Shown here: positions 1,540-55,451 of the stretch, piece by piece
Position numbering within the stretch: position 1 is the stretch's first letter
How the letters are laid out: each line of letters begins with the position of its first letter
DNA from: a virus
Length of the DNA stretch: 64,000 nt
Virus record (IMG/VR): IMGVR_UViG_3300049187_000041
Direction: 5' to 3' (one strand)
Program-made: the position numbers and the translations under genes
Notes under the pieces: model-generated
Database searches by the model: none
What the model was told of the DNA's origin: nothing
What the model saw: the letters and a program-made list of their open reading frames with translations, nothing else

Positions 1540-2450
1540 CCCTGACCCCTTGCATGGGCGGCTGGTGCACGAGGCGCGACCACTGCGCGCATTTCCACGC
1601 AGCCAGTGAACACCACCAACCCGCCGAGCGCTTGTGCCCTCCTGGGCATGACGGAGTCGGCTTGCAAACCCTGGAGCACATCGACATGACCCGTCCCTAC
1701 ATCAGCGCCGAATTGCGCCGGCAGCAGGCCCTCGAGATCCTGCGCGACGGCATCACCATCGCCGAGATTCGCGATGCGCTCGGGTACGCCAGCAACGAGA
1801 ACGCGACCCGCGTCATGGATGCGCTGGTCTACGCCGGCCAAGCGTTCCATGCGCGCGCCAAGGCCGATCCCGAGTCCGGCGGCCGCGCGTGGACGACGCA
1901 CTACTTCAAGACGGCCGAGGCGCGCGATGCCTACGTCAAGGCGAAGGACAAGGCCATCGCCGAGCGCAAGAGCGCGCGAAAGAAGGCGACAGCCAACCGC
2001 ATGCCGTACTACATCAAGCGCAACGCCGAACGCAAGGCGGCGCGCCAGGCGAGGGTGCAGGAGGACGCTGCAAAGCGGGCCGCCGAGAAGGCGCAGCGCG
2101 AGGCCTTGCAACTGGCCGAGGCCGAACAGCGCAAAGAGCGCGCCCGCCTCGAGCGAGAGGCGAAGGCCGCCGCCAAGCAGCGCGAGGCCGCTTCGGCCAA
2201 GAGTCAGCAGGCCCGCCTGAAGGCCGAGACGAAGGCCGCCGGCCTGATGGCGCAGCTCAAGAGCAACGCCAAGGCCGCACCTGTCGTCATCAAGGCACGC
2301 GGCCCGGCGTTTGTCGATGGCCCGGCCGACATGTCGCGAGCGAAGATCACGAAGCTGCCGACGCCGCCGGATCGCTTCGCGGTCACGAAGGCGCCGAGCG
2401 TCATCTCGTCGGGAGCATGCCGCTCCTGGGCTGCGGCGGTGGCAGCATGA
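1536..2450 (+). CDS. Hypothetical protein (Cys/His-rich N-terminus, HTH-like middle, Ala/Lys/Arg coiled coil)
   Basis: ATGA overlap with upstream gene; MTLTPCMGGWC start. Confidence 0.6.
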   Translation: MTLTPCMGGWCTRRDHCAHFHAASEHHQPAERLCPPGHDGVGLQTLEHIDMTRPYISAELRRQQALEILRDGITIAEIRDALGYASNENATRVMDALVYAGQAFHARAKADPESGGRAWTTHYFKTAEARDAYVKAKDKAIAERKSARKKATANRMPYYIKRNAERKAARQARVQEDAAKRAAEKAQREALQLAEAEQRKERARLEREAKAAAKQREAASAKSQQARLKAETKAAGLMAQLKSNAKAAPVVIKARGPAFVDGPADMSRAKITKLPTPPDRFAVTKAPSVISSGACRSWAAAVAA

Positions 2451-2662
2451 TGCCCGCTCGCGTGCTCGCCCAAGTGCTGCGCTTGGGGTCTCAGTGGCTG
2501 GAGGTGAAGGCCGCGGCGCTGCGTCGCACCCATCCCGCGCGCCCGCGCGCATTTCCCCGCATCACCGCCGCGGCGTTCTGGTGGACCTACATCCTGGTGG
2601 GCATGCCGCTGCTTGGCTGGGGGCTGAGAGCGCTGATCGAGGCGCTGGGGCTGCGGGCATGA
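2447..2662 (+). CDS. Small protein with C-terminal TM helix
   Basis: ATGA overlaps at both ends; hydrophobic FWWTYILVGMPLLGWGL. Confidence 0.6.
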   Translation: MMPARVLAQVLRLGSQWLEVKAAALRRTHPARPRAFPRITAAAFWWTYILVGMPLLGWGLRALIEALGLRA

Positions 2663-3045
2663 TCCACGTCCCCATCCGCACAGTCCCCGGACTCAACGTC
2701 CGCGAGCACTTCGCCGTCCGCGCCAAGCGCGTCAAGGCCGAGCGCACGGCCACTGCAACCGCGCTCTACGGCAAGCCCAAGCCGCCCATCCCCTGCAGCG
2801 TGCGCCTGACCCGCGTTGCGCCGTCGGCCGGCGTGGACGACGACAACCTCGTCGGCGCGCTCAAGGGCGTGCGAGATCAGGTCGCGGCATGGCTCGGCGT
2901 CGACGACAAGCACCGCAACCAGGTGCGCTATGTCTACGAGCAGAAGCGCGGGCCCTGGGGCGTCGAGATCGAGTTCGGCCAGCCGGTGTCGGGCGCGCAG
3001 TTCACGCTGCTACTGCCCGAGCCGGAAGAGGAGGGCGCGTTTTGA
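2659..3045 (+). CDS. rusA: RusA-like Holliday junction resolvase
   Basis: DDDNLVGALKGVRD...GVDD matches the RusA D-x-D-N...K...D...DD pattern. Confidence 0.75.
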   Translation: MIHVPIRTVPGLNVREHFAVRAKRVKAERTATATALYGKPKPPIPCSVRLTRVAPSAGVDDDNLVGALKGVRDQVAAWLGVDDKHRNQVRYVYEQKRGPWGVEIEFGQPVSGAQFTLLLPEPEEEGAF

Positions 3046-3287
3046 GCTGCCCCGCCTGCACCGAAGCCGCGGCCGTGGAGTCGCACCAGTTCGCCGCCGG
3101 CTGCCGCGGCTGCGTCGCCCGCGGCCTGGCCCGCATCTTCCTCCGCCGTGGCGAGCGCGGCCGCAAGCTCCGCATGGCCTGCGAACAGGCCGGCGTCACC
3201 GAGCAGCAGGTGCGCCAGGCGTGGGCCGCGGATGCGGCGAACCCGGAGCGGCCGTTGACGAAAGCTGACCAGGAGGCAAGTTCGTGA
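3042..3287 (+). CDS. Small Zn-binding hypothetical protein
   Basis: TTGA overlap; CPAC...CRGC. Confidence 0.55.
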   Translation: MSCPACTEAAAVESHQFAAGCRGCVARGLARIFLRRGERGRKLRMACEQAGVTEQQVRQAWAADAANPERPLTKADQEASS

Positions 3288-11159: not shown

Positions 11160-12482
11160 ATGCCGCAGACCTACACACCTATCGCAGGCTTGCGCAAGAA
11201 GATCGACGCGACCAGTGGCGCCATTCTCGACATCGTCGATCAGAACGGCGATTCCCTAGGCTTGGTGTCAGGGGCTGGGCTTTCCAAGCTGGTGGGCGAC
11301 CAGGTTGCGGCTTCGAGCGGCACGCCGACCAGCGCCGTAGGTGCGGCCGGCAGCCTGACAGGCGCCTACTACTACACCGTCACCTTCGTCACGGCGCAGG
11401 GTGAAACCGCCCCCTGGCCCGGCACGGCAACGGTCGTCAATCCGTCGTCGCAGCAGGTCAACCTCACCTCCATCCCCATCGGCCCGGCCGGCACGACGGC
11501 ACGCCGCATCTATCGCACGCCCGCCACTCCGACCGATCCGAAGGACTACCGCTTCCTGGTCGAGATCAGCGACAACACGACGACTACTTACACCGACAAC
11601 ACCGCAGACGGCTCGCTTGGCAGCCCGGCGAACTGGAACGCGACCAACCGTGGCGTCGTCACGGACGGCTCCGTCCCGCTTCTGCGCGCCAGCGACCAGA
11701 GCACCGGCGTTGGCTACCAAGCGTTCAACAACAACGTCGGCTATGCCTCCACTGCGGTGGGCTACCAGTCGCTGTACTCCTGCACAACCGGCCGCCGAAA
11801 TGTTGCCGTCGGCACCTATTCGCTCACGACGCTGACAACCGGCTATGAAAACGTCGGCGCGGGTACGCATGCCGGCCAATCCATCACGACGGGCATCCAG
11901 AACACGCTCCTCGGCTATAGCGCCGGCTTCAATGTCACGACGCAGGGCGGCAACACCTTCGTCGGCAACTCGTCCGGGTCGAACGCGGGCCTGGGCGGCA
12001 CGTCGCAGTTCAACACGGCGCTGGGTCGCGATTCGCTTCGCGGCACAGCCAGCGGCTTGGGCCAGCTCAACGTGGGCATCGGCTACTTCGCGCTGCGCGA
12101 CATCAACACCGCCGACCAGTGCGCGGCGCTCGGGCCGTATGCCGGCCGCTATGCCAATGCCAGCCGGCAGCTGTTCGTCGACACAGGCGGCGACCGCACC
12201 AACATCGCCAATTGCCAAAACATCGGCCTGATCTACGGCAAGGGCGAGACGACCGCGGCGGCTCAGGTCCTGCACCTCAATGCCCAGGTTCGCATCGGCG
12301 CGGGTGACGCGCCGGTCGTTGCCGGACTGCCGGCCGCTGCCTCTGGCTACAAGGGGTATCGCGGATACGTCACTGACGCCACCGTGGCCTACACGTCGGC
12401 AAACGTCGGCAGCACCGTCGCCGGTGGCGGCTCCAACACCGTGCCGGTGTTCTGCAACGGCACCAACTGGGTGATCGGCTGA
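11160..12482 (+). CDS. Head-fibre-like protein: short anchor + FN3-like domain + beta-roll (TAVGYQSL-type) repeats
   Basis: Repeats STAVGYQSL / NVAVGTYSL / NVGAGTHAG / NTLLGYSAG / NTALGRDSL; C-terminal CNGTNW. Confidence 0.65.
   Translation: MPQTYTPIAGLRKKIDATSGAILDIVDQNGDSLGLVSGAGLSKLVGDQVAASSGTPTSAVGAAGSLTGAYYYTVTFVTAQGETAPWPGTATVVNPSSQQVNLTSIPIGPAGTTARRIYRTPATPTDPKDYRFLVEISDNTTTTYTDNTADGSLGSPANWNATNRGVVTDGSVPLLRASDQSTGVGYQAFNNNVGYASTAVGYQSLYSCTTGRRNVAVGTYSLTTLTTGYENVGAGTHAGQSITTGIQNTLLGYSAGFNVTTQGGNTFVGNSSGSNAGLGGTSQFNTALGRDSLRGTASGLGQLNVGIGYFALRDINTADQCAALGPYAGRYANASRQLFVDTGGDRTNIANCQNIGLIYGKGETTAAAQVLHLNAQVRIGAGDAPVVAGLPAAASGYKGYRGYVTDATVAYTSANVGSTVAGGGSNTVPVFCNGTNWVIG
11261..11280 (+). 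other. Left cassette-junction motif (LVSG), phage 1
   Basis: CTTGGTGTCAGGGG identical to 53383-53396. Confidence 0.6.
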
Positions 12483-12489
12483 CGCCGAA

Positions 12490-12507
12490 TTTCAAGCCCC
12501 TGCCGGT
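12490..12507 (+). other. Right cassette-junction motif, phage 1
   Basis: CAAGCCCCTGCCGGT (12493-12507) identical to 54824-54838; intergenic. Confidence 0.6.
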
Positions 12508-12516
12508 ATCCATCAA

Positions 12517-13119
12517 ATGGCCTCCCAAGTCGAGATCTGTAACCAAGCGCTGACCAAGGCAGGCGCAGCTCGCATCGTCAGCCTGAACGACGAGACCGAG
12601 TCGGCCGGCGTGCTGCGCACGATCTACAACGTCAAGCTCGACGCCGAGCTGGCTGCGCAGCCCTGGACCTTCGCCATCAAGCGCCAGCAGCTGCCGGCCA
12701 GCAGCACGGCACCGCTGTTCGGCTGGGCTCGCGCATTTCCAGTGCCGGCCGACTACCTGGCCATGGTGGAGGTTGGCGAGAACTACGTGTTCTACGACTC
12801 CAATGCCGGCGCGCTGTTCCAGCTGGAGGGCAGCGACAGCGGCATGCAGATCCTGACCGACCAGGGCTCGCCGCTGAACGTCCGCTACGTGCGCCGCGTG
12901 ACGACGCCGGGCCTGTTCCCGGCACTGTTCGTCGAGGCCTTCGCTTGCCGCCTGGCTGCCGAGATCTGTGAGCGCCTGACGCAGAACCAGAGCAAGCGTG
13001 AGCTGGCTTGGCAGGAGCGGGAGCGCGCCATCCGCGACGCGCGCCGCGTCAACGCCATCGAGCAGCCGCCGCGGCAAGTCCCGCCGAGCAGCTGGCTGCG
13101 CGCACTGACGGAGGGTTGA
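12517..13119 (+). CDS. Tail tubular protein A (T7 gp11-like adaptor)
   Basis: S.VEICNQAL..G; PWTFAIKR..L; LF.EAFACRLAAEI. Confidence 0.88.
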   Translation: MASQVEICNQALTKAGAARIVSLNDETESAGVLRTIYNVKLDAELAAQPWTFAIKRQQLPASSTAPLFGWARAFPVPADYLAMVEVGENYVFYDSNAGALFQLEGSDSGMQILTDQGSPLNVRYVRRVTTPGLFPALFVEAFACRLAAEICERLTQNQSKRELAWQERERAIRDARRVNAIEQPPRQVPPSSWLRALTEG

Positions 13120-15326
13120 TGAAGTCCTCTCCGATGCAGACGTCGTTCAACGGCGGCGAGCTGTCGCCCTACATCGCGGGACGGCCCGATGTGGCCAAGT
13201 ACGCCAGCGGCTGCAAGCGCATGGAGAACTTCCTGCCAGCCGTGCAGGGCCCAGCCTTCACGCGTCCCGGCTTCGTCTTCTGCGCCGAGGTGAAGGACAG
13301 CGGCGACCGCTGCTGGCTCGTGCGATTCGAGTTCGGCGTCGAGGACTCCTACATGCTGGAGTTCGGCGATGGCTACGTGCGCTTCTTCTACAACCACGGC
13401 CAGGTGGTCACTGGGCCGTCGACGCCCTACGAGATCGTGTCGCCATACACCGCGGCCGAACTGACCAACGCCGACGGCTCCTGCGCGCTGCGCTACGTGC
13501 AGACCGGGGATGTCGTCTACCTGGTGCACCCGTCTCACCCGCCTTACAAGCTGTCGCGCCTGGCGCCCACCAATTGGACACTGGACGCGGTGGACTTCGC
13601 GCCGCCCCCCTTCAAGGCGCAGAACATCACCACCACCACCATCTACGCTGGAGCCAAGACCGGCGCGACGACGCTGGTGGCCAGCGCCGCGGTCTTCACC
13701 TCAGACATGGTCGGGCAGCAGATCTACCTTGGCGAGAAGGACGTCCGCGACACCAAGCAATGGGAGGCGGACAAGCCGATTGCCATCGGCGACCTGCGAC
13801 GCAGCGACGGCAAAAACTACCGCGCCCTGAACTCGGCGACGACCGGCAGCGTCAAGCCGACGCACGCCATCGGCGCAGCCTACGATGGCGACAACGGGGT
13901 GCAGTGGCAGTTCGAGGATGCGGGCTACGGCTGGGCCGAGATCACCGCCTTCACCGACTCGACGCACGTCAGCGCGACCGTTATTTCCCAAATCCCGGCC
14001 GGCGCCGTCGGCAGCGGCAACGCCACCACGCGCTGGGCGCTGCAGGCCTGGAACGCGACGGACGGCTACCCGACGTCCGTCACCTTCTTCCGAGAACGCC
14101 TGGTGTTCGCGCGCGACGAGACCGTGTGGTTCAGCGTCTCCGCCGATTTCGAGAACTTCGCCACCCAGATCGACGGCGTGACCACGGCGGACGCCGGCTT
14201 CGAGCGCACGCTGTCCAGCGACGGCGTCAACGCCATTCGCTGGATGTCGCCCGGCGACGTGCTGCTGGTTGGCACCTCCGGCGACGAGTGGGCCGTGGTA
14301 GAGGCGACGACATCAGACCCATTCGGCCCCCAGAACTGCAAAGCGCAGCGCCAGAGCAAGTACGGCAGCAACCGCGTGCAGCCGCAGCGCGTCGGCAGCG
14401 ACACCCTGTTCGTGCAGAAGGCGGGCCGCAAGGTGCGCGCCATGGCCTTTCGATTCGAGGAGGATGGTTTCGAGAGCCCGGACGTCACGAAGTTCGCGCA
14501 CCACATCCCAAAGCCCGGGCTGGTGGACGCCGCCTTCCAGCAGGAGCCTTGGTCTGTGGTCTGGGGCGCGCGCAGCGACGGCAAGCTCGTGGCCCTCACC
14601 TTCGACCGAGAGCACGACGTCGTCGCCTGGACGCGGCACCCGATGACCGGCGCCAGTGTCGAGTGCGTCGAGACCATCCCAGCGCCCGACGGCTCGCGCG
14701 ACGACCTCTGGCTGATCGCCCGCTACACCATCGCCGGCGTCACGCGCCGCTACGTCGCGTACATGGGCAAGGAGCAAGACGAGACCGACGAGATGGACCA
14801 GGCGGATTGGTGCTACTCCGACATGCTGCTGACCTACGACGGCGCGCCAGCCACCACCATCAGCGGGCTGGGCCACCTGGAAGGCCAGGCGGTTTGGGTG
14901 CTCTCCGACGGCGCCCGCCATCCGGACCGCACCGTCACAGGCGGTCAGATCACGCTGCAGCGCGCGGCATCCAAGGTGCAGGTCGGCCTGCCCTGCGAAG
15001 GATTCCTGCAGCCCATGGATATGGAAGGTGGCAGCGGCAACGGCACCAGCCAGGGCAAGACCAAGCGCCCCAACGTCATGGTCATCCGCGTCGACAACTC
15101 TCTGGGCGGCACCGCGGGCCGCTCCGAGGAGACGCTGAAGGAAATGAAGTACCGCAACACCAGCGTCCCCATGGGCAGCCCGCCGCCGGCCTTCACCGGC
15201 GACATCGAGATGGAGTGGGATGGCGACTACGAGAAGTCCATGCCCATCGTCATCAAGAAGGACCGGCCCATGCCGCTGACGGTGGTCGCCGTCATGCCGC
15301 AGGCCTTGGTGTCGGAGGGTCGGTGA
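13119..15326 (+). CDS. Tail tubular protein B (T7 gp12-like nozzle)
   Basis: QTSFNGGELSP start; YP..VTFF.ERL; follows tubular A. Confidence 0.9.
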   Translation: MKSSPMQTSFNGGELSPYIAGRPDVAKYASGCKRMENFLPAVQGPAFTRPGFVFCAEVKDSGDRCWLVRFEFGVEDSYMLEFGDGYVRFFYNHGQVVTGPSTPYEIVSPYTAAELTNADGSCALRYVQTGDVVYLVHPSHPPYKLSRLAPTNWTLDAVDFAPPPFKAQNITTTTIYAGAKTGATTLVASAAVFTSDMVGQQIYLGEKDVRDTKQWEADKPIAIGDLRRSDGKNYRALNSATTGSVKPTHAIGAAYDGDNGVQWQFEDAGYGWAEITAFTDSTHVSATVISQIPAGAVGSGNATTRWALQAWNATDGYPTSVTFFRERLVFARDETVWFSVSADFENFATQIDGVTTADAGFERTLSSDGVNAIRWMSPGDVLLVGTSGDEWAVVEATTSDPFGPQNCKAQRQSKYGSNRVQPQRVGSDTLFVQKAGRKVRAMAFRFEEDGFESPDVTKFAHHIPKPGLVDAAFQQEPWSVVWGARSDGKLVALTFDREHDVVAWTRHPMTGASVECVETIPAPDGSRDDLWLIARYTIAGVTRRYVAYMGKEQDETDEMDQADWCYSDMLLTYDGAPATTISGLGHLEGQAVWVLSDGARHPDRTVTGGQITLQRAASKVQVGLPCEGFLQPMDMEGGSGNGTSQGKTKRPNVMVIRVDNSLGGTAGRSEETLKEMKYRNTSVPMGSPPPAFTGDIEMEWDGDYEKSMPIVIKKDRPMPLTVVAVMPQALVSEGR

Positions 15327-25426: not shown

Positions 25427-25809
25427 ATAGCTACCAGCTGAGCGGGCGCAGCCTGACGAAACTGCAGGGCGTCCACCCGGACCTTGTGCGCGTGGTGCAG
25501 CGGGCGTTGCAGCTCAGCAAAGTCGACTTCGCTGTGACAGAGGGGGTGCGCACCATCGAGCGGCAAGCAGAGCTCGTGGCTGGCGGTGCATCGCGGACCA
25601 TGAGCAGCCGGCATATCACCGGCCACGCTGTCGACCTGGCGCCCATCATCGGCGGCCAGATCAGCTGGGCCTGGCCGCCGTTCTACGACCTGGCCGACGC
25701 CATGAAGAAAGCCGCCGCTGAACTCAAGGTGGCGGTCTGCTGGGGAGGCGACTGGGTCACGTTCCGCGATGGACCGCATTTCGAACTCGACCGAAAGGTG
25801 TACCCATGA
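25423..25809 (+). CDS. Endolysin, peptidase M15 family
   Basis: LQGVHPDL, VTEGVRT.ERQ, SRHITGHAVD, WGGDW, DGPHFEL. Confidence 0.92.
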   Translation: MNSYQLSGRSLTKLQGVHPDLVRVVQRALQLSKVDFAVTEGVRTIERQAELVAGGASRTMSSRHITGHAVDLAPIIGGQISWAWPPFYDLADAMKKAAAELKVAVCWGGDWVTFRDGPHFELDRKVYP

Positions 25810-26210
25810 GCCTCGATCCCGTCACGGCACTGCTCGACATCGGCGGCAAGGTCATCGACCGCATCTTCCCCGACCCTGCCCAGAAAGCCGCCGCGCAACT
25901 GGAGCTGTTCAAGCTGCAGCAGCAGGGCGAGCTTTCGCAGATGGCCGGGCAGATGAGCATCAACCAGACCGAGGCGGCGAGCAGCAACGCCTTCGTTGCC
26001 GGATGGCGGCCCTTCGTCGGCTGGGTGTGCGGCACGGGCTTCGCGGTGCAGTTCGTGGTCGGGCCCATGGCGGAGTGGGGAGCCGCGCTGGCTGGCCACC
26101 CCGTCAAGTTCCCGCAGATGGACATGGCGACCATGATGCCGCTGCTGTTCGGCATGCTGGGTCTGGGCGCTTACCGTTCCGTCGAGAAGGTCAAGGGCGT
26201 GGCGAGCTGA
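25806..26210 (+). CDS. 3TM holin family protein (DUF3154-like)
   Basis: GWRPFVGWVCG...GMLGLGAYRSVEKVKG. Confidence 0.85.
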   Translation: MSLDPVTALLDIGGKVIDRIFPDPAQKAAAQLELFKLQQQGELSQMAGQMSINQTEAASSNAFVAGWRPFVGWVCGTGFAVQFVVGPMAEWGAALAGHPVKFPQMDMATMMPLLFGMLGLGAYRSVEKVKGVAS

Positions 26211-29913: not shown

Positions 29914-30972
29914 TCAGGCCCCAATCTGGCGGCTGTTCGACACAGCCGTCTCACGCCACCGGGCTTTGACGTAGATCTCGGTGGTCGTCTTGTCTTTGTG
30001 CCCGCACAGCAACTGCACGAGCTCGAGCGGTCTGCCTTCGCGGTAGACCAGGTCCGTGGCTCCCTTGCCCTTCAGGTCGTAGAAGCCCCAGGTCGGCATG
30101 CCGGGGATGTCCTTGCGCACCTTGGCTTGCACGCGCCGGAAGATGGCGCACAGGCCGTCGTAGGTGTACGCCTCGCCCTTCAGGGTGTGCAGCCACGGCT
30201 GGCTGATGCTGGGCACCTCGCCCTGCAGCTCGCGGATCACGGCGTCGAGGCCGGCGTCGATCGCGATGTCGACGACCGTGCCGGTCTTGCCCTGGTCGTT
30301 GCGCAGCACGCGCTGGCCGTCCTTGTGGACGATGTTCCACGGGCCCCAGCCGAGGATGTCATCGGGGCGCTGCAACGTGCGGTAGACCAGCGCCATCATG
30401 CCGCGCACCGACTTAGGCGATGCGTCGTAGACGGCCCGGTACCAGGCATCCTCGACGTACACCTCGCGCTTCGTCTCGCGGTTGCGCTTGACGCCGGACT
30501 GCCGCATGCAGGGGTTGACCTTGATGCCGCAGTTCTCGTCGGTGCGGATCAGCCACGACAGGCACGCCGACAGGCAGGCCCGCTCGCGGTTGGCCCGCAC
30601 GGCGCGATTGAGCTCGGCGCCCAGGTCGAGGTAGTCCTGCACCGCCTTGCTCGTCACCTGGGCCGGCGTGAGCTTGCCGAAATACTTCTTCAGCGGCTCG
30701 CTGTCGCGCTTGTAGTCGTCGCGCGTGCGCTCGGCCAGTCCCTTCGCGGCGACGCGCTTGTCGCAGTGCGCGAGGAACAGGTCGAGGTAGTAGGACATCG
30801 TGCCGAAGCTGCTGCCCGGGTCGTTGTAGACCTTGGCCCTGCGCTTGGCTTCCTCGACATCGGTGCCGAGGTGTTCCCACTCGCCGGACTTGTGGACGTA
30901 GTAGAACGCCCCGTGGTGGGCGTAGACCCGGGCCGGCAGGCCGAGCGGGTTGTGCTTGCGTGGGCGGGCCAT
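29914..30972 (-). CDS. int: Tyrosine integrase 2
   Basis: LPARVY.HHGAFYY N-terminal arm-binding domain; QRPDD, K, FYDLKGK, LCGH, TEIY. Confidence 0.92.
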   Translation of the reverse strand: MARPRKHNPLGLPARVYAHHGAFYYVHKSGEWEHLGTDVEEAKRRAKVYNDPGSSFGTMSYYLDLFLAHCDKRVAAKGLAERTRDDYKRDSEPLKKYFGKLTPAQVTSKAVQDYLDLGAELNRAVRANRERACLSACLSWLIRTDENCGIKVNPCMRQSGVKRNRETKREVYVEDAWYRAVYDASPKSVRGMMALVYRTLQRPDDILGWGPWNIVHKDGQRVLRNDQGKTGTVVDIAIDAGLDAVIRELQGEVPSISQPWLHTLKGEAYTYDGLCAIFRRVQAKVRKDIPGMPTWGFYDLKGKGATDLVYREGRPLELVQLLCGHKDKTTTEIYVKARWRETAVSNSRQIGA

Positions 30973-48636: not shown

Positions 48637-50354
48637 ACCAGAACACCGACCCCCGCACCCCACAGCAGCGCATGCTGCAGCGGAAGAACTCGCTGTGGAA
48701 CGACCGCAGCAGCTACGACTCGCACGCGCAGGACATCGCCGACTTCCTGCTGCCGCGGGCCGTGCGCTTGGACACGAGCGACCGCAACAAGGGCGGCAGC
48801 GACAGCTACAACTCGATCATCGACGAGACCGGCACGCTCGCACACGGCGTGCTCGAAGCGGGCCTCATGGCCGGTATGACCAGCCCGGCGCGCCCGTGGG
48901 TCAAGCTCGCGACACCTGACCGCGACCTGATGGAGTTCGCGCCGGTGAAGGCCTGGCTGTCGAAGGTCACGCTGAAGATGCTGCAGATCTTCGCGAAGTC
49001 GAACACCTACCGCGCGTTCCGCAGCACCTACGGCCAGCTCGGCGGCTTCGGCGTCGGCGCGAACATCGTGGTCGACAACTACCAGAACGTGCTGCACAAC
49101 TATCCGCTCGCGTTCGGGCAGTACGCGATCGGCCTGAACCACCTGGGCCAGGCCGACACGGTCTACCGCACGATGACCAAGACCGTCGGCCAACTGGTCG
49201 GCGAGTTCGGTCTGGAGAACTGCTCGCAGACCGTGCGCAACCTGTGGGACAAGCACAGCTACGACGCCCCGGTCCCGGTACTGCACGCCATCGAGCCGCG
49301 ACGCGACCGCGACTACAGCAAGCACGACGCGAAGAACATGGCGTTCAAGTCGTGCTATCTCGAGATGGGCCGCGACGGCGAGCAGAAATACCTGCGCGAG
49401 TCGGGGTTCAAGGAGTTCCCCGCCATCTGCCCGCGCTGGCTGGTCGACGGCGACGACACCTATGCCTCGCGCTGGCCGGCGGCCATCGCGCTGGGTTCGA
49501 TCAAGCAGCTTCAGCAGGAGCAGTTGAAGAAGAGCACGGCCATCGACTACCAGGTCGAGCCACCGCTGCAGGTGCCGATCGCCTACAAGAACCAGGACAT
49601 CGACCGGCTGCCCGGCGGCGTGATGTACGTGGACGTGAACAGCCCAACCGGCGGCGTCCGCTCGGCGTTCGAGGTGAACCTGAACCTGCAGCACCTGCTG
49701 CTCGACATCCAGGATGTGCGCGACCGCATCAATAAGGCCTTCTTCGTCGACCTGTTCAAGATGCTGGCGAACGACACGCGCAGCAACGTCACGGCGCGCG
49801 AGATCGCCGAGCGGCACGAAGAGAAGCTGCTGATGCTGGGCCCGGTGCTGGAAAGCCTTCACACCGAGATGCTGCAGCCCTTCGTCGAGATCACGTTCGC
49901 GAAGATGATGCGGGCCGGCCTGTTCGCGCCCGGCATGCCGCTGGAGCCGCCCGCCGAACTGCATGGCCAAGACCTCGACATCGAGTTCATCAGCACGCTG
50001 GCGCAAGCACAGCGTGCCGTCGGCACCGCAGCCGTCGACCGGGTCATCGGCACGATCGCCTCGATGTCGGCCATCTGGCCGCAGGCCGTCGACAAGCTCG
50101 ACCCGGACCAGGCCGTCGACGCCTACAGCGACATGCTGGGCGTCGACCCCTCGCTGATCGTGGCCGACGACAAGGTCGCGCTGATCCGTAAGGCCAAGGC
50201 CCAGCAGCAACAGGTCGCGCAGCTCGCCGCGATGGCGCCGGCAATGAAGGACATGGCCGGCGCGGCCAAGGACTTGAGCCAGGCCGATCCCGAGGGCATG
50301 CAGAGCGCGGCCTCGGCGTTCAGTGGCTACAGCGTGCCGGGGATGGGGCGATGA
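48633..50354 (+). CDS. Portal (head-to-tail connector), BPP-1 type
   Basis: 573 aa; SPARPW, TAREI.ER.EEKL.MLGPVL, IEFISTLAQAQ. Confidence 0.93.
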   Translation: MNQNTDPRTPQQRMLQRKNSLWNDRSSYDSHAQDIADFLLPRAVRLDTSDRNKGGSDSYNSIIDETGTLAHGVLEAGLMAGMTSPARPWVKLATPDRDLMEFAPVKAWLSKVTLKMLQIFAKSNTYRAFRSTYGQLGGFGVGANIVVDNYQNVLHNYPLAFGQYAIGLNHLGQADTVYRTMTKTVGQLVGEFGLENCSQTVRNLWDKHSYDAPVPVLHAIEPRRDRDYSKHDAKNMAFKSCYLEMGRDGEQKYLRESGFKEFPAICPRWLVDGDDTYASRWPAAIALGSIKQLQQEQLKKSTAIDYQVEPPLQVPIAYKNQDIDRLPGGVMYVDVNSPTGGVRSAFEVNLNLQHLLLDIQDVRDRINKAFFVDLFKMLANDTRSNVTAREIAERHEEKLLMLGPVLESLHTEMLQPFVEITFAKMMRAGLFAPGMPLEPPAELHGQDLDIEFISTLAQAQRAVGTAAVDRVIGTIASMSAIWPQAVDKLDPDQAVDAYSDMLGVDPSLIVADDKVALIRKAKAQQQQVAQLAAMAPAMKDMAGAAKDLSQADPEGMQSAASAFSGYSVPGMGR

Positions 50355-50671
50355 GCGAGCAGCACGACCCGTTCGCCCAGCGCGAGCAGCGCGAGGACGC
50401 CGACCGCCGCAAGTTCATCGCGCAGGAGCAGCAGCGCGAGGACATGGCGTGGCTGATGGCCGACCCGCGCGGCCGGCGGCTGATGTGGTCATGGCTGGAG
50501 TTCTGTGGCGTGCGCCGCACCAGCATGACCGGCAACTCGCAGACGTTTTTCCTCGAAGGCCAGCGCAACGTCGGCCTGATGCTGGAGGCGAACATCCTCA
50601 CGCACACGCCCGAGCAGTGGCTGCGCATGGTCAACGAAGGCCAGGAACTGCGCAAGAAAGCACCCGCTTAA
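50351..50671 (+). CDS. Bbp19-like small head protein
   Basis: WLM.DPRGRR; FFLEGQRNVGL. Confidence 0.85.
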   Translation: MSEQHDPFAQREQREDADRRKFIAQEQQREDMAWLMADPRGRRLMWSWLEFCGVRRTSMTGNSQTFFLEGQRNVGLMLEANILTHTPEQWLRMVNEGQELRKKAPA

Positions 50672-50676
50672 ACGGC

Positions 50677-50708
50677 GTGCACTTAGCGCGCGGATGTGAT
50701 CCCACAAT
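50677..50708 (+). promoter_or_regulatory. Phage 2 late-promoter motif, copy 3
   Basis: GTGCACTTAGC-N15-CACAAT. Confidence 0.72.
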
Positions 50709-50716
50709 TTCGCGCC

Positions 50717-51415
50717 ATGGACACCACGTCTCCCGAATCTCTGCTCACAAGCGGCCAAGAATCCACTGCTGCCACGGGTGAACAGGCAACCACCGACGCG
50801 ACCACAACCGCGGCAGGTGCGGCGGCTGACGCGACGAAGACCGAAGGGTCTGCCGGCGCAGCCGATGACGGCAAGGGCACCACTGAAGCCAAGACCGAGG
50901 AAGCGAAGGAAGGCGACAAGCCGACCGGCGCACCCGAGGCCTACGAGGCTTTCACGATGCCCGAGGGCTACGAACTCGACGCCGAGCTGCTCGGCGAGTT
51001 CAGCCCGGTGCTGAAGGAACTGGACCTCTCGCAAGAGGCCGCGCAGAAGGTCATCGACTTCGCGCCGAAGCTGATCGAGAAGACCGTCGCGGCAACGCAG
51101 GCGGCCACCCTCGAAAGCCTCGGCCTGAAGGACGCGGGCACCTGGGCGGCTGCCGTGCGCGCGGACAAGGAGATCGGCGGCGACAAGCTGGCCGAAAACC
51201 TCGCCGTCGCGAACAAGGCGCTCGGCAATTTCTTCAGCAAAGACGCCATCTCCGCACTGCAGAAGACCGGCTTGGGGAACCACCCCGAGTTGATCCGCGG
51301 CCTCGTGAGGGTGGGCAAGGCGATCAGCGAAGACTCGTTCGTGCCAGGCGGCAAGAACACCTCGCCCGAGAGCCCCGCCACGCGCATCTACAGCGCGTCG
51401 AACATGAACCCGTGA
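50717..51415 (+). CDS. Capsid scaffolding protein
   Basis: GAPEAYE.F; D.EIGG.K; GLGNHP.LIR. Confidence 0.85.
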   Translation: MDTTSPESLLTSGQESTAATGEQATTDATTTAAGAAADATKTEGSAGAADDGKGTTEAKTEEAKEGDKPTGAPEAYEAFTMPEGYELDAELLGEFSPVLKELDLSQEAAQKVIDFAPKLIEKTVAATQAATLESLGLKDAGTWAAAVRADKEIGGDKLAENLAVANKALGNFFSKDAISALQKTGLGNHPELIRGLVRVGKAISEDSFVPGGKNTSPESPATRIYSASNMNP

Positions 51416-51432
51416 CCTGAAAGGCCACCGCA

Positions 51433-52431
51433 ATGACCACTCTCGCCACCACCCACCCGACGCTGCTCGACCTGAAGTCGCGCCTCGACTCGAAGGGCAA
51501 CGTGATCCCGGTCATCGAGATGTTGGCGCAGACCAACGAGATCCTCGACGACGCCGTTTTCCTCGAAGCCAACGAGCTGACCGGCCACACGACCAGCGTG
51601 CGCACCGGCATCCCCGAGCCCACCTGGCGCAAGCTGTACGGCGGCGTGCAGCCGACCAAGAGCACCAGCGTCAAGGTCCGCGAGGGCCTGGGCATGCTGG
51701 AGAACTACGCCGAAGTCGACAAGGCCCTGGCCGACCTGAACGGCAACAGCGCCGCGTGGCGCCTGTCGGAAGAGAGCGCGATCATCGAAGGCTTCGGCCA
51801 GAAGCTGGCGCGCTACATGATCTACGGCAACGAGGCCACCGAGCCCGAAGGCTTCACCGGCCTGGCCCCGCGCTTCAACGACCAGTCCGCGGTCAACGGC
51901 GAGAACATCCTCACGTCGGCCGCGACGCCGGACGGCACCGACAACACCTCGCTGTGGGTGGTCGTGTGGGGGCCGAACACCTGCCACATGGTCTACCCCA
52001 AGGGCTCGCAAGCCGGCCTGCAGATCAGCGACAAGGGCCAGGTCACGATCGAGAACGTCGACGGCGCCGGCGGCCGTATGGAAGCGTACCGGACGCACTA
52101 CCGCTGGGATGCCGGCATGGTGGTGCGCGACTGGCGCTACGTCGTGCGCGTGAACTACGACCTCGAAGACGTGGTGAAGTCGGGCGCCACGGGCCCCGTG
52201 CTGGCCGACATGCTGGCGAAGGCGCTGCGTCGCATCCCGAACCTGAACATGGGCCGGCCGGCGATCTACATGAACCGCGACTCGCTCGACGCGTTCGACC
52301 TGCAGAGCAACAACATGCCCCTGCTGCAGTTCAAGACGCAGGAAGAGGCGCAAGGCAAGTTCGTGACCCGCTTCCGCGGCGTCCCGATCCGCCGCGTCGA
52401 TCAGATCCTGTCCAACGAAGCGGGCATCTAA
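51433..52431 (+). CDS. Major capsid protein (BPP-1-like)
   Basis: PTLLD; E.L.QTNEIL.D; F.GL..R; FRGVPIRRVD. Confidence 0.9.
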   Translation: MTTLATTHPTLLDLKSRLDSKGNVIPVIEMLAQTNEILDDAVFLEANELTGHTTSVRTGIPEPTWRKLYGGVQPTKSTSVKVREGLGMLENYAEVDKALADLNGNSAAWRLSEESAIIEGFGQKLARYMIYGNEATEPEGFTGLAPRFNDQSAVNGENILTSAATPDGTDNTSLWVVVWGPNTCHMVYPKGSQAGLQISDKGQVTIENVDGAGGRMEAYRTHYRWDAGMVVRDWRYVVRVNYDLEDVVKSGATGPVLADMLAKALRRIPNLNMGRPAIYMNRDSLDAFDLQSNNMPLLQFKTQEEAQGKFVTRFRGVPIRRVDQILSNEAGI

Positions 52432-52456
52432 GCCGGCGCCCGAAAGGAAAATCACC

Positions 52457-52942
52457 ATGATTCTCGACGAACGCAATGAGTTCGCAGATGCCGTATCGGT
52501 GGCGGCAGCCGCCGGCACCGCCCTGATCGGCGACGTGATCGACCTCAAGCCGTCGACCACGAACCCGAACACCACGGTGGACCTGGAAGGGTCCGACCTG
52601 TATCTCGTGATCCAGACGGACACCGAGATCATTACCGGCGGCGCGGCCGGCACGCTGCAATTCAAGCTGTCGAGCGACGCACAAGCGGCCATCGCTACCG
52701 ACGGCTCGGCGACCGATCACATCGTCACGGCGTCGTTCGTGACCGACGACGCGGCGGCCAACTCGGCGGCGCTGAACGCCGGCGGGCTGATCTACTGCGG
52801 CAAGTTGCCGAGCGGCAGCTACGAGCGCTATCTCGGCATCCTGGCTGTGACCGGCACGACCACCACGACCGCCGGCAAGATCAACGCGTTCCTGACCAGC
52901 GACCCGGCGCTCTACCGCGCCTACGCTGACAACGTGGCCTGA
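52457..52942 (+). CDS. Capsid cement protein (Bbp16-like)
   Basis: MILDE.NEF; RYL; TAGKINAFL. Confidence 0.8.
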   Translation: MILDERNEFADAVSVAAAAGTALIGDVIDLKPSTTNPNTTVDLEGSDLYLVIQTDTEIITGGAAGTLQFKLSSDAQAAIATDGSATDHIVTASFVTDDAAANSAALNAGGLIYCGKLPSGSYERYLGILAVTGTTTTTAGKINAFLTSDPALYRAYADNVA

Positions 52943-52944
52943 TC

Positions 52945-53220
52945 ATGAGCGAGCAAAAACCCTCTGAGCCGATCACGCTGGTGGCTGTCGAGCGTGGCTT
53001 CGCGATGGGCCGCCTGATCGAGCCCGGCACGAGGTTCCAGTTCAACCCCGTGGGCAGCGACGGCAAGCCGCGCAAGCTGCCCAAGTGGGCGGCCCCGGTC
53101 GGCGACGCGCGCCTGAGCAAGCCCAAGCCGCAAGTCGGCGACCTGAAGCCCAAGGACGCGCAAGCGGCCGTCAAGCAGAAGGCCGGGCAGCTCGCGGGCG
53201 GCGGGTCGGACCTGGCCTAA
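52945..53220 (+). CDS. Small hypothetical head-region protein
   Basis: RGF..G.L..PG.RF...KLPKW. Confidence 0.7.
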   Translation: MSEQKPSEPITLVAVERGFAMGRLIEPGTRFQFNPVGSDGKPRKLPKWAAPVGDARLSKPKPQVGDLKPKDAQAAVKQKAGQLAGGGSDLA

Positions 53221-53241
53221 GTTTTCCGGCAAGCAGTTGCC

Positions 53242-53271
53242 AATGGGCCGCCTCTGAGCGGCCCATTTTTT
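53242..53271 (+). terminator. Rho-independent terminator
   Basis: AATGGGCCGC-CTCTGA-GCGGCCCATT followed by T-run. Confidence 0.85.
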
Positions 53272-53287
53272 CTGAAGGACTAGAACC

Positions 53288-54820
53288 ATGGACGGTCGGA
53301 TCGTCAGCGGCGTGCGCCACATCGTGAACGCGAGCGGGCAACTGATCGGGTATCGCAACCCGGTGACGGACCAAGACGAATCCTTGGTGTCAGGGGGTGG
53401 GAACGGCAGCACCTTCGTTGGCATGGGCCATAGCCGCATCGCCCAGGCATTCAACGGCGGCAGCTTCCCGTCGCTGAGCTTCGGGTATCCGACCATCATC
53501 ACGCAGATGCTGGGCCAGCGGATCACCTGGCTGGCCTCCTATGCGGTGGTTGGAAATACCGTCGCTCAGGTCATCTCCACCCAGCTCCCACAGCTTCAGG
53601 CGCTCTCGACGAAGCCGGACTATGTGCTGATGGAGATCGGCTACAACGATTTCAGCGTCGGCGCGACGGCGGCGGCAGTGCAAGCTCAGTACGCCCAGCT
53701 GCTGACGGCAATCAACGGGCTCGGCATCAAGGTCGTTGCTGTCACCGACTCCCCGGGCACGACCCTGACGGCCTCTCAGCAGCTCCAGCAGCAGACGTTC
53801 AATGCCTGGCTGGTGGGTCAGGGTCGCGCAAACAAGAGCCTGATCGTCGTGGATGGCTACAGCTGCGTCGTCGGCACGGCCGCAGACGGTTCGGCCGGCG
53901 CCATGCACTCGACCATGAGGCAGTCGGACGGCATCCACCATGCGCCGTCCGGCGCGATGGCTATTGCGCGCGAGCTGTTCACGGTGCTGGACCCGATCAT
54001 CCCCAAGCGCAGCATCTTTGGAGCCGGCGCCAGCGCGGCGGCGCAGCTGGTCTACAACCCCAACGCCGACGGCGACAACGCCAGCGGCGCCAACGGCTGG
54101 ACGGCCGGCGCGGGTGTTACCGGGAATGGCCCCAGCTACTGGAACGCGGTCTGCGCGAATGCGACGGCGACCACATCTTCTGTCGCTCGCTCGGCAAGCT
54201 CCTACGCCCCACAGAACAAGACTGGCGCGCTTCTCAATGTGGCGGCCAGCATCACGGCAAACGACGGCACCGTTACCGTCGTGCCGGCGACCACCACGAA
54301 CATCAGGTTTATCCCGTTCGCCAACGGCGCGACGGTGCAGCTGGGCTACCGCGTCATGCCGACCGTGGACAACGGCGCCGGCTATGTGGTGACAACGGCC
54401 GGCACGCTCGGCGCAGCGGACGACTCGGCCACCTGGTCAACTACGCCGGGGGCCGTCGTGCAATCTGGCGCTGGCACCGCCCGCCTGACGGTCGTGGAGA
54501 AGATCGTCCCCGGTGACACGGTGGTATTTGTCGCAGAGGTTTTCGGCGCAGTCACAGGCGGCTCGGGCGGCGTCTACGCCCAGCTGGCCGCCTTCACCTC
54601 GGCGTTCGGCAACCTCGGCTCGACCTACGGTGGGCGCCTCAACATCGGCACCTACGGCCCGAACGCCGGCTATATGCCGCCGTCGATGGTGCTGCAAACG
54701 GCCCCGTTCACGCTGCCGACCAACACCGGGATCGTGCAGCCGCAGGTCGTCATCAGCGGGACCAACGGAGCGGCGATCACGGCACAGATCGGCGCTTGCA
54801 TGCTGCGCAAGGTCAGCTGA
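53288..54820 (+). CDS. Head-fibre-like protein: short anchor + SGNH/GDSL hydrolase + beta-sandwich domains
   Basis: Blocks GHSR, AVVGNT, EIGYND, DGIHH. Confidence 0.75.
   Translation: MDGRIVSGVRHIVNASGQLIGYRNPVTDQDESLVSGGGNGSTFVGMGHSRIAQAFNGGSFPSLSFGYPTIITQMLGQRITWLASYAVVGNTVAQVISTQLPQLQALSTKPDYVLMEIGYNDFSVGATAAAVQAQYAQLLTAINGLGIKVVAVTDSPGTTLTASQQLQQQTFNAWLVGQGRANKSLIVVDGYSCVVGTAADGSAGAMHSTMRQSDGIHHAPSGAMAIARELFTVLDPIIPKRSIFGAGASAAAQLVYNPNADGDNASGANGWTAGAGVTGNGPSYWNAVCANATATTSSVARSASSYAPQNKTGALLNVAASITANDGTVTVVPATTTNIRFIPFANGATVQLGYRVMPTVDNGAGYVVTTAGTLGAADDSATWSTTPGAVVQSGAGTARLTVVEKIVPGDTVVFVAEVFGAVTGGSGGVYAQLAAFTSAFGNLGSTYGGRLNIGTYGPNAGYMPPSMVLQTAPFTLPTNTGIVQPQVVISGTNGAAITAQIGACMLRKVS
53382..53403 (+). 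other. Left cassette-junction motif (LVSG), phage 2
   Basis: CTTGGTGTCAGGGG (53383-53396) identical to 11261-11274. Confidence 0.6.
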
Positions 54821-54838
54821 TTCCAAGCCCCTGCCGGT
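54821..54838 (+). other. Right cassette-junction motif, phage 2
   Basis: TTCCAAGCCCCTGCCGGT immediately after the stop codon. Confidence 0.6.
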
Positions 54839-54860
54839 GCACATCGAGTAAGCCCACCCC

Positions 54861-55451
54861 ATGGCCTCCAAGACCGACATCTGCAACCTGGCCCTGAGCC
54901 ACTTCGGCCAGGCCGCGGACATCAGTTCGATCGACCCGCCCGACGGCAGCGCGGAGGCCGAGCACTGCGCGCGGTTCTACCCGATCGCCCTGGCCGAACT
55001 GCTGGAAGCGCACCCGTGGACGTTCGCCACGAAGCGCGCCACGCTGGCCGAGCTGACCAACGACCGCGAGGACTTCACCTACAAGTACCAGGTGCCGGCC
55101 GACTGTGCCAAGCCGCGCCGCCTGCTGCCCGACGGCTACACCAGCGACGAGGACGACGGCGCCGAATACCAGCGCGAGGGCAGCTACATCTACACCGACG
55201 AGGTGAACGCCACGCTGGTCTACACCTACCGGCTGAACGACACGACGAAGTTCTCGGGCCTGTTCGTGACGGCCCTGTCGTTGCGACTCGCGTCCTACAT
55301 CGTCGGTCCGATCATCAAAGACCCGAGCGGCGTGGTGCAGGACCGGCTCTACCAGCGCAGCGAGCGCAAGCTGGCCGAGGCTCGCGTCAGCGACGCCAAC
55401 AGCGAGCGCAGCCGCGCGACGCACACCTCGACCGCAGCAAGGGCCCGCTGA
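54861..55451 (+). CDS. Tail tubular protein A
   Basis: S.TDICNLAL.H.G; HPWTFATKR..L; F..ALS.RLA. Confidence 0.88.
   Translation: MASKTDICNLALSHFGQAADISSIDPPDGSAEAEHCARFYPIALAELLEAHPWTFATKRATLAELTNDREDFTYKYQVPADCAKPRRLLPDGYTSDEDDGAEYQREGSYIYTDEVNATLVYTYRLNDTTKFSGLFVTALSLRLASYIVGPIIKDPSGVVQDRLYQRSERKLAEARVSDANSERSRATHTSTAARAR

Follow-up and report, generated by a model that had tools for sequence, protein, structure and literature searches.

Short, mutually inverted joints bracket exchangeable C-terminal cassettes in candidate virion-display genes of unrelated phages

A stretch of 64,000 nucleotides (nt) from the IMG/VR virus record IMGVR_UViG_3300049187_000041 (the window, by which we mean this whole stretch) stems from a soil/rhizosphere metagenome and holds the late regions of two abutting podovirus-type phages. 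Each phage has a gene, P0001 in phage 1 and P0002 in phage 2, in which a short N-terminal module is fused in frame to a longer cargo. The cargo is delimited by two short DNA motifs: a left site (L) inside the gene, at the joint of module and cargo, and a right site (R) in the non-coding DNA directly 3' of the stop codon. We find that whole cassettes pass between otherwise unrelated phages, with crossovers only within the stretches of 11-16 nt at L and R that the partners have in common. The motifs of the window had been pointed out in an earlier note on this DNA; a motif search of viral contigs in IMG/VR recovered the same pair around variable in-frame cargo in 64 distinct L-R pairs.

The exchange is seen in contigs that combine one phage's backbone with another's cassette. 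Two of these, L180 and L167, match phage 2 at 91-94% identity on either side of the cassette (50289-53401 and 54820-57666), yet the cassette within this phage-2-type backbone is that of phage 1 (11261-12518), at 99.7-99.8% identity. The switches fall within TTGGTGTCAGGGG and CAAGCCCCTGCCGGT: the homology of both contigs to phage 2 stops at 53401, and that of L180 resumes at 54820. The same phage-1 cassette is found at 98.7% identity in a third backbone, L139. A second cassette, of 1376 nt, is 100% identical in L111, L114/L209 and L196, the flanks of which are otherwise dissimilar; here the identity extends from the first G of the left core to just after CCGGT. L209 itself joins the left flank of L114 to the right flank of L111 around the identical cassette, and is either a recombinant or an assembly chimera over the 1.4-kb exact repeat; given this contig, the pairing of left and right flanks in short-read assemblies is to be read with caution. 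In two soil runs, X16 and X17, the Logan contigs are interrupted at positions 11261 and 12507/12518, and the cassette is deeper than its flanks in both (368 versus 223-250 in X16; 28.5 versus 8.5-14 in X17). The loose ends at these breaks are L139-type and L180-type flanks, and the variants therefore coexist in the same samples.

Another swap has a different right end. The contig L001, which encodes the protein P0003, follows phage 1 at about 80% identity across the head genes as far as 11274, the last G of GGTGTCAGGGG; its homology sets in again at 12368, within the 3' end of the cargo of phage 1. The right end of this W1/L001 swap thus lies inside a shared cargo segment and not in R, which indicates that ordinary homologous recombination acts at the locus. 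The earlier note had proposed dedicated sites for the exchange of in-frame C-terminal cassettes. Exchange at the sites is borne out by the recombinants, the branching of the assembly graphs and the pairing of some 63 module types with some 76 cargo types described below; the word 'dedicated' is not, given that no recombinase lies nearby, no site-specific products were found and the W1/L001 swap used ordinary homology.

The two sites were recovered as first described: the left 14-mer CTTGGTGTCAGGGG is exact at 11261 and 53383 and the right 15-mer CAAGCCCCTGCCGGT at 12493 and 54824. L is read in frame as L-V-S-G (amino acids 35-38 of P0001 and 33-36 of P0002), and R occupies in both phages the intergenic gap between the stop codon and the gene of tail tubular protein A (tube A). 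Their relation as inverted repeats is real and general, with CAGGGG-N-TGGGAAT as the common unit. L follows the pattern GGTGTCAGGGG-N-TGGGAAT, read as V-S-G-(A/G/D)-G, and R is the inverted copy ATTCCCA-N-CCCCTGCCGGT, situated 0.9-2.6 kb 3' of L and directly after the cargo stop. In its fuller form the L joint is ..CC(C/T)(T/C)GGTGTCAGGGG-N-TGGGAAT, which encodes (A/S)(L/P)-V-S-G-(A/G)-G at the hinge of module and cargo; the non-coding R joint, just 3' of the stop, reads (TGA)TTCCCA-N-CCCCTGCCGGTGCACAT. Over all pairs the consensus is atCCctGGTGTCAGGGGcTGGGa.t for L and (TGA)ttCCcAtCCCCTGCCGGTgcacat for R. Each joint spans about 25 nt, and in nearly all of the 64 pairs the inner arms of L and R form 14-nt inverted repeats.

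Beyond this mutual symmetry, L is itself a partial palindrome (CCCTG-GTGT-CAGGG), and R forms a complete palindrome of arm, spacer and arm, CCCATCCCC-TGCCGGT-GGGGATGGG, in two contigs, L113 and L196, with a 3' arm identical to the left site's inner arm; in L113 a T run follows it. R is not a local hairpin or terminator in general, being one only in a few loci such as these two, and neither a sigma-70 promoter nor a terminator nor an Rfam family was found at L or R. L carries a Shine-Dalgarno-like AGGGGG/GGGGGTG, and R is C-rich and complementary to L (6 + 6-7 bp). Covariation between L and R is weak and limited to position N, where 19 complementary pairs are observed versus 13 expected. Single motif matches are weak evidence: a blastn comparison of phages 1 and 2 returns dozens of chance 19-nt matches with one mismatch (E~0.6), and two matches to the 15-mer with at most two mismatches are reached in 8 of 100 shuffles. 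The significance comes from the placement of the pair and its recurrence elsewhere.

In IMG/VR the left pattern GGTGTCAGGGGSTGGG occurs in at least 117 contigs versus 18 for the reversed-pattern control, and the right pattern CCCCTGCCGGTGCACA in 50 versus 0. About half of these 50 represent one unrelated phage group (L218-L254; about 25 contigs, mostly from IMG sample 3300045988), which has no left site upstream of the 16-mer CCCCTGCCGGTGCACA and in which the 16-mer stands in a different, conserved context, with GATGGTATT directly before it and TTCATTGCC directly after it. In the 64 non-redundant cases with both sites the left core is in the V-S-G-(A/G/D)-G frame, and CCCCTGCC, at the distance given above, lies a few bases 3' of the stop codon of the last cassette gene. 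The flanks of these pairs are unrelated, with an outer identity of 0.2-0.4, whereas the cores are invariant. A set of 95 non-redundant fusions comprises about 63 clusters of N-terminal modules and about 76 clusters of cargo: 13 modules occur with two or more cargoes, and 10 cargoes with two or more modules. The host phages include HK97-like siphophages and several kinds of podophage. Nine motif matches in 802 alpha- and gammaproteobacterial genomes represent chance contexts, and the motif strings were not found in the literature.

Conservation of the joint is at the level of DNA. To obtain loci independently of the motif, 87 were fetched by way of the neighbouring tube A gene; a gene at the cassette position is absent in most of them and present in seven. 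Five of these seven (W1, W2, L001, L010 and L011) have the exact 11-mer GGTGTCAGGGG, read as GTG TCA GGG and situated 33-52 codons from the start. The codons of the joint are rare in the genes of the window, as the earlier note had remarked (TCA 3.3% of Ser, GGG 11% of Gly and TTG 6.1% of Leu), and the probability of GTG TCA GGG given the peptide VSG is 0.0017 under window codon usage, yet five of seven genes match exactly. Among 119 homologues of the phage-1 cargo collected by protein search the joint peptides vary (VSGAG.., ALVSDDGIAAP, ALVLGAG..). Two of the 119 were fetched as DNA: L264, with ALVSDDG, has the joint GGTGTCAGATGATGGG (reading CCTTGGTGTCAGATGATGGGATT) together with a perfect R site; in L265 the joint CAAGCCCTGGTGTTAGGGGCTGGGAAG shows a single C to T change (TCA to TTA, Ser to Leu) with the surrounding DNA kept. 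The sites also decay: R is degenerate in L001 and L011, while L002 and L016 lack the L core and have no R motif after their stops. Since the gene stays when its sites are decayed or missing, the sites are not needed for its function; such dispensability fits a role in evolvability and not one in expression.

In the window all features of the two loci are on the plus strand. P0001 (440 amino acids; 11160..12482), defined by its open reading frame (ORF) and translation, matches to PHROG tail-spike and virion-structural families and an AlphaFold2 model, is ordered as a 35-residue N-terminal module, the joint, a beta-sandwich domain, fibre-like repeats and a C-terminal domain. The N-terminal module (11160..11263) is part of the backbone. 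The left site (11253..11283) has its core GGTGTCAGGGG at 11264-11274 (codons GTG TCA GGG), within the 14-mer at 11261-11274, and its inner arm CAGGGGCTGGG runs on into the cassette, the exchanged unit of 11261..12518. The non-coding right site, directly 3' of the stop (12483..12513), has its core CCCCTGCCGGT at 12497-12507, within the 15-mer at 12493-12507, and an inner arm that is the reverse complement of the left inner arm. Tube A (12517..13119; phrog_394, E = 2e-52) is the first backbone gene 3' of the cassette. In phage 2 the corresponding gene P0002 (510 amino acids; 53288..54820) has a 33-residue N-terminal module, the joint and an SGNH/GDSL esterase cargo. Its left site (53375..53405) has the core GGTGTCAGGGG at 53386-53396 and the 14-mer at 53383-53396; its right site (54818..54848) has the core CCCCTGCCGGT at 54828-54838 and the 15-mer at 54824-54838, with the stop codon TGA abutting the inner arm; tube A follows at 54861..55451 (phrog_394, E = 1.4e-48). 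Both P0001 and P0002 lie between head genes and a phrog_394 tube A. Apart from a terminase stretch at 66% identity (blastn) the two phages have next to no DNA in common, and their capsid folds differ (Phage_capsid_2 versus GP7 + Bbp16 in Pfam). Just 5' of P0002, at 53242-53267, there is a strong intrinsic-terminator-like hairpin (10-bp stem and T run), which raises the possibility that the phage-2 cassette gene is a separate, moron-like transcription unit.

Both cargoes are of the kind first described. P0002 matches Lipase_GDSL_2 with E = 3.8e-11 and passes the Pfam gathering score for both this family (44.2 bits versus a cut-off of 32.9) and Lipase_GDSL (31.9 versus 23.6), in keeping with the SGNH hydrolase claimed. 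P0001, the cargo of which had been described as an FN3-like domain plus beta-roll repeats, was modelled with AlphaFold2 from 74 input sequences (mean predicted local distance difference test score of 73): a confident beta-sandwich spans residues 50-160 and is followed by fibre/spike-like repeats. Residues 1-35 of the model are of low confidence, a helix starts exactly at the joint (residues 36-45), and the repeats at 180-320, which precede a C-terminal domain, are poorly modelled. Foldseek gave only weak matches to this model, the best being the SPO1 capsid (E = 1.7e-3). The related N-terminus of about 35 residues claimed for P0001 and P0002 lacks statistical support: BLASTP finds no match between the two, and a hidden Markov model built from phage-1-type N-termini has no match to P0002 at E<=10. 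By sequence comparison, the only demonstrable common part of the two N-termini is the joint itself.

Protein searches with the N-termini return few relatives. With residues 1-45 of P0001 the same module was found on two other cargoes, those of P0003 (SGNH, 454 amino acids) and P0004 (257 amino acids), and overall the phage-1 module carries at least four different cargoes (in L001, L002, L011 and the window). Many modules have a helix-like peptide 5' of the joint (..T-A-A-Q-V-A-A-x-Q-A-L followed by VSGAG). Many cargoes open with SGNH-like GDS motifs, and some cassettes consist of two genes, as in L010. The cassette is flanked in HK97-like siphophages by the major head protein upstream and the head-tail adaptor Ad1 downstream, in other podophages by the phrog_332 adaptor and the phrog_578 head-closure protein, and in the phages of the window by tube A downstream. 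This recurrent position at the head/connector boundary makes it plausible that the product is a head or neck fibre.

Searches for a dedicated enzyme gave no candidate at the cassettes. Among the non-structural genes of the window (Pfam) the sole recombinase is the phage-2 prophage integrase (29914-30972), about 22 kb away, and no invertase, resolvase or transposase is seen near the cassettes in the window. When the integrase, nuclease and HNH proteins of the window were used as tblastn queries against 162 loci, none was found near the cassettes except HNH_AP2 homologues in nine loci, which look like the usual HNH of the packaging module. The recombination-related set of phage 2 consists of the prophage integrase, two HNH endonucleases, a DUF2800 PD-(D/E)XK nuclease and an Enc34-type single-stranded DNA-binding protein (SSB). 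As to products, the consensus inverted junction is absent from the contigs in IMG/VR and strand-changing joints are absent from those of four runs; the tandem or circle junction CCCCTGCCGGTGTCAGGGG was not found in the fetched loci or IMG/VR, and the fetched loci contain no empty sites. An invertible two-faced segment was considered and rejected: after simulated inversion the fusion frame runs for a median of 27 codons, as control frames do, and the inverted junction does not occur in IMG/VR. Set against transposase-less mobile insertion cassettes such as miniature inverted-repeat transposable elements (MITEs), the unit has a 14-nt inverted repeat; the GGTG outside both ends is constant, unlike the variable target-site duplications of such elements, there is no symmetry in the 5 outermost nt of the unit, and neither empty nor solo sites were seen in the fetched loci.

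The reading we prefer, giving it an even chance, is that of a display protein with swappable cargo, the swap being a double crossover at universal linker joints by general or phage-encoded recombination. The gene product would be displayed on the virion as a head, neck or tail fibre: its N-terminal module, specific to the phage, would serve for attachment, and its C-terminal cargo, an esterase in some cases and a fibre domain in others, would be exchangeable. During co-infection or in phage-prophage encounters, general or phage-encoded recombination functions, in phage 2 possibly the DUF2800 PD-(D/E)XK nuclease and the Enc34-type SSB, would act on the short shared linkers. The joints would stay identical because every exchange copies them, and lineages that keep them would retain access to a shared cargo pool; they would then be linkers of the Botstein type, as proposed for the T-even His boxes and the receptor-binding-protein motifs of E. 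coli phages. Several points weigh against this proposal. An identity of 11-16 nt falls far short of the length that RecA requires and makes a poor substrate even for phage annealases, and the 100%-identical cassettes in three unrelated backbones imply that exchange is frequent despite it. The linker model neither needs nor explains the 14-nt inverted arms (CAGGGG-N-TGGGAAT), and it gives no account of how some 60 unrelated N-terminal modules first gained the joint. With no hairpin, terminator, sigma-70 promoter or RNA family at R, the conservation of R across lineages is left without another visible cause. The short identity set against the frequency of exchange, together with the unexplained inverted symmetry, thus leaves a dedicated enzyme as a tentative second choice.

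Were there such an enzyme, whether a site-specific recombinase, a homing nuclease or something akin to a transposase, and whether encoded by phage or host, L and R would be its sites, and it would bind the shared 14-bp arm CAGGGG-N-TGGGAAT, which is oriented oppositely at either end of the cassette. Because L and R differ in their outer and spacer parts (GGTGT versus CCGGT), they would be heterospecific and hence allow only L x L and R x R events: a natural recombinase-mediated cassette exchange free of inversion or loss. This is what one might expect from inner arms that are inverted in 64 pairs, from end points of the mobile unit that are identical in independent events, and from fully identical cassettes in unrelated backbones with only the 11-nt cores in common. 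The retention of a non-coding R, at which no other function was detected, across siphophage and podophage lineages also speaks for it, as do the partial palindrome of L and the full arm-spacer-arm palindrome of R in L113 and L196; one conserved arm with a spacer inside a coding region resembles the sfx sites of the R64 shufflon. We nevertheless regard dedicated exchange as possible rather than probable, since there is no recombinase or transposase near the cassette in the window or the 162 loci, inverted and circle/tandem junctions were not found in the fetched loci or IMG/VR and empty sites not in the fetched loci, L-R covariation is weak (19 versus 13 expected at N), the sites decay in some phages, and one swap broke at a non-site position.

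It is improbable that the motifs are kept for gene expression or for the protein, with recombination there being incidental. The joint could on that account be a hinge peptide with a pause-inducing Shine-Dalgarno-like AGGGGG, or L and R could form a long-range mRNA stem affecting stability or translation, and the helix-like peptide before the joint in many modules, the modelled helix that starts at the joint, the Shine-Dalgarno-like L and the complementary C-rich R are all compatible with this. Protein constraint, however, cannot account for the rare codons or for the Ser to Leu variant in which the DNA is kept; there is no clear compensatory L-R covariation, the gene is retained in relatives with one site missing or degraded, no Rfam family, terminator or promoter was found at the motifs, and the cassette boundaries coincide exactly with the cores. 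An artefact, whereby the matches in the window arose by chance and the 'recombinant' contigs are assembly chimeras, is very unlikely. The 19-nt one-mismatch matches between the phages at E~0.6 and the capacity of exact 1.4-kb repeats to mis-join flanks within one sample, as L209 illustrates, lend it some colour; against it, a shared motif of 14-19 nt is shorter than assembler k-mers and cannot produce false joins of flank and cassette, the junctions turn up again in collections that are independent of one another (IMG/VR, ENA and Logan unitigs from several studies), and the reversed controls reach 18 versus at least 117 contigs and 0 versus 50. The L180 backbone differs from phage 2 by 6-9% and is therefore a separate phage.

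The arrangement has parallels in several known systems, and the statement in the earlier note that no such system had been described was too strong: recombination hotspots had already been suggested at conserved DNA motifs on either side of receptor-binding domains (PMC10408124, and Tetart 1998 as cited there). In lytic phages of E. coli, the motifs of receptor-binding proteins (RBPs) are proposed hotspots for the transfer of receptor-binding domains (Witte et al., 2023, Virol J 20:174, PMC10408124). One or two of these are found within the RBP gene, 5' of the variable domain, and another in the downstream non-coding DNA; they are conserved across phage genera above the level of their flanks, with lengths of 20-95 nt and a mean identity of 63-81%, the phages share homologous anchors, and the downstream motif is a predicted terminator (PMC10408124). 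The layout reported here is the same, with one motif in the gene and a non-coding one downstream; it differs in having invariant 11-nt cores, about 63 unrelated N-terminal modules, a downstream site that is no terminator and sites that are mutually inverted. What is new relative to the published linker motifs is hence the invariant cores, the crossing of lineages, the unrelated anchors and the inverted site pair.

At the T-even distal tail-fibre locus, the 1998 work of Tetart, Desplats and Krisch is said to describe His boxes in gp37 and glycine-rich motifs in gp38. There, as here, short motifs flank hypervariable adhesin segments and recombination swaps specificity in frame. The T-even motifs, though, are reportedly parts of the protein structure (metal-binding His boxes and Gly islands) repeated within one gene family, with no non-coding partner site, no inverted symmetry and swapping within one phage group. 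Inversion systems that swap C-termini are represented by the Mu G segment (Gin-gix), the P1 C segment (Cin-cix) and the R64 shufflon (Rci-sfx). These are alike in having a site inside the gene at the constant/variable junction and an inverted partner beyond the variable part, so that an adhesin or fibre acquires a different C-terminal specificity domain in frame. They have alternative C-termini on both strands and an adjacent recombinase gene, neither of which is present here; moreover, the exchange reported here is between genomes and not within one, and no inverted form was found.

Constant N-terminal anchors with swappable tailspikes are known from SP6/K1-5/K1E, from the anchor-branch arrangement of the Klebsiella KP32 type and from the head-binding domains of P22-like phages. 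The likeness lies in a constant N-terminal attachment and a swappable enzymatic C-terminus that sets host range. In those systems the conserved element is a protein anchor of tens to hundreds of residues that recombines over its whole length, whereas here the anchors are wholly different and only the 25-nt joint is common. Integron cassettes (attI x attC, IntI) share with the present ones the promoterless cassette, the conserved 3' site and a diverse shared pool; in contrast, no integron integrase is seen in the window, and there is neither a folded attC-like palindrome nor a cassette array. Integron cassettes are also whole ORFs, unlike the in-frame C-terminal fusions described here.

Modules for host range and surface enzymes are the fastest-evolving parts of phages, and their transfer between unrelated phages is usually blamed on rare illegitimate events. 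Here, a single invariant joint and its inverted partner link dozens of unrelated attachment modules and cargoes across siphophages and podophages, in soil and the other sampled environments. With identical cassettes in different backbones within the same samples, it looks like a natural plug-and-play or cloning standard for virion display. For ecology, this would amount to a shared cargo pool, the traffic of which can be tracked in metagenomes with two short patterns. With regard to mechanism, it offers a clean substrate for asking whether dedicated enzymes or short-homology recombination produce mosaics, a question as old as the modular theory; for engineering, it suggests ready-made junctions for fusing enzymes to a phage attachment module in laboratory phages. 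If dedicated exchange were true, it would be a kind of in-frame integron for virion-displayed enzymes across phage lineages.

Elsewhere in the window, phage 1 closes with a gene-transfer-agent-type three-transmembrane holin at 25806-26210, from which it follows that phages 1 and 2 abut. The early region of phage 2 (26800-45411) encodes a tyrosine integrase, a PAPS-reductase-like protein, an SNF2 helicase, a family A DNA polymerase, two free-standing HNH endonucleases (one of the NUMOD4 and one of the AP2 type), the Enc34-type SSB, the DUF2800 PD-(D/E)XK nuclease and a primase-helicase. The left motif has look-alikes that match it at 12 of 14 positions; they occur at 15305-15318 and 57739-57752, at the C-terminal end of both tail tube B genes. 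The one at 15305 was ruled out as a joint, being the conserved protein end ..MPQALVSEGR* in relatives of phage 1; tail tube B of phage 2 ends in ..LDVVSGG*, and its sequence GGTGTCAGGCGGCTGA resembles the joint with a stop codon directly after it. L139 and phage 1 also have in common a second, 1.24-kb segment at 99.35% identity (window 2013-3248, equivalent to L139:6467-7702), the rest of L139 being unrelated. No Pfam domain was found in the ORFs of this segment, which may be another mobile module with its own boundaries.

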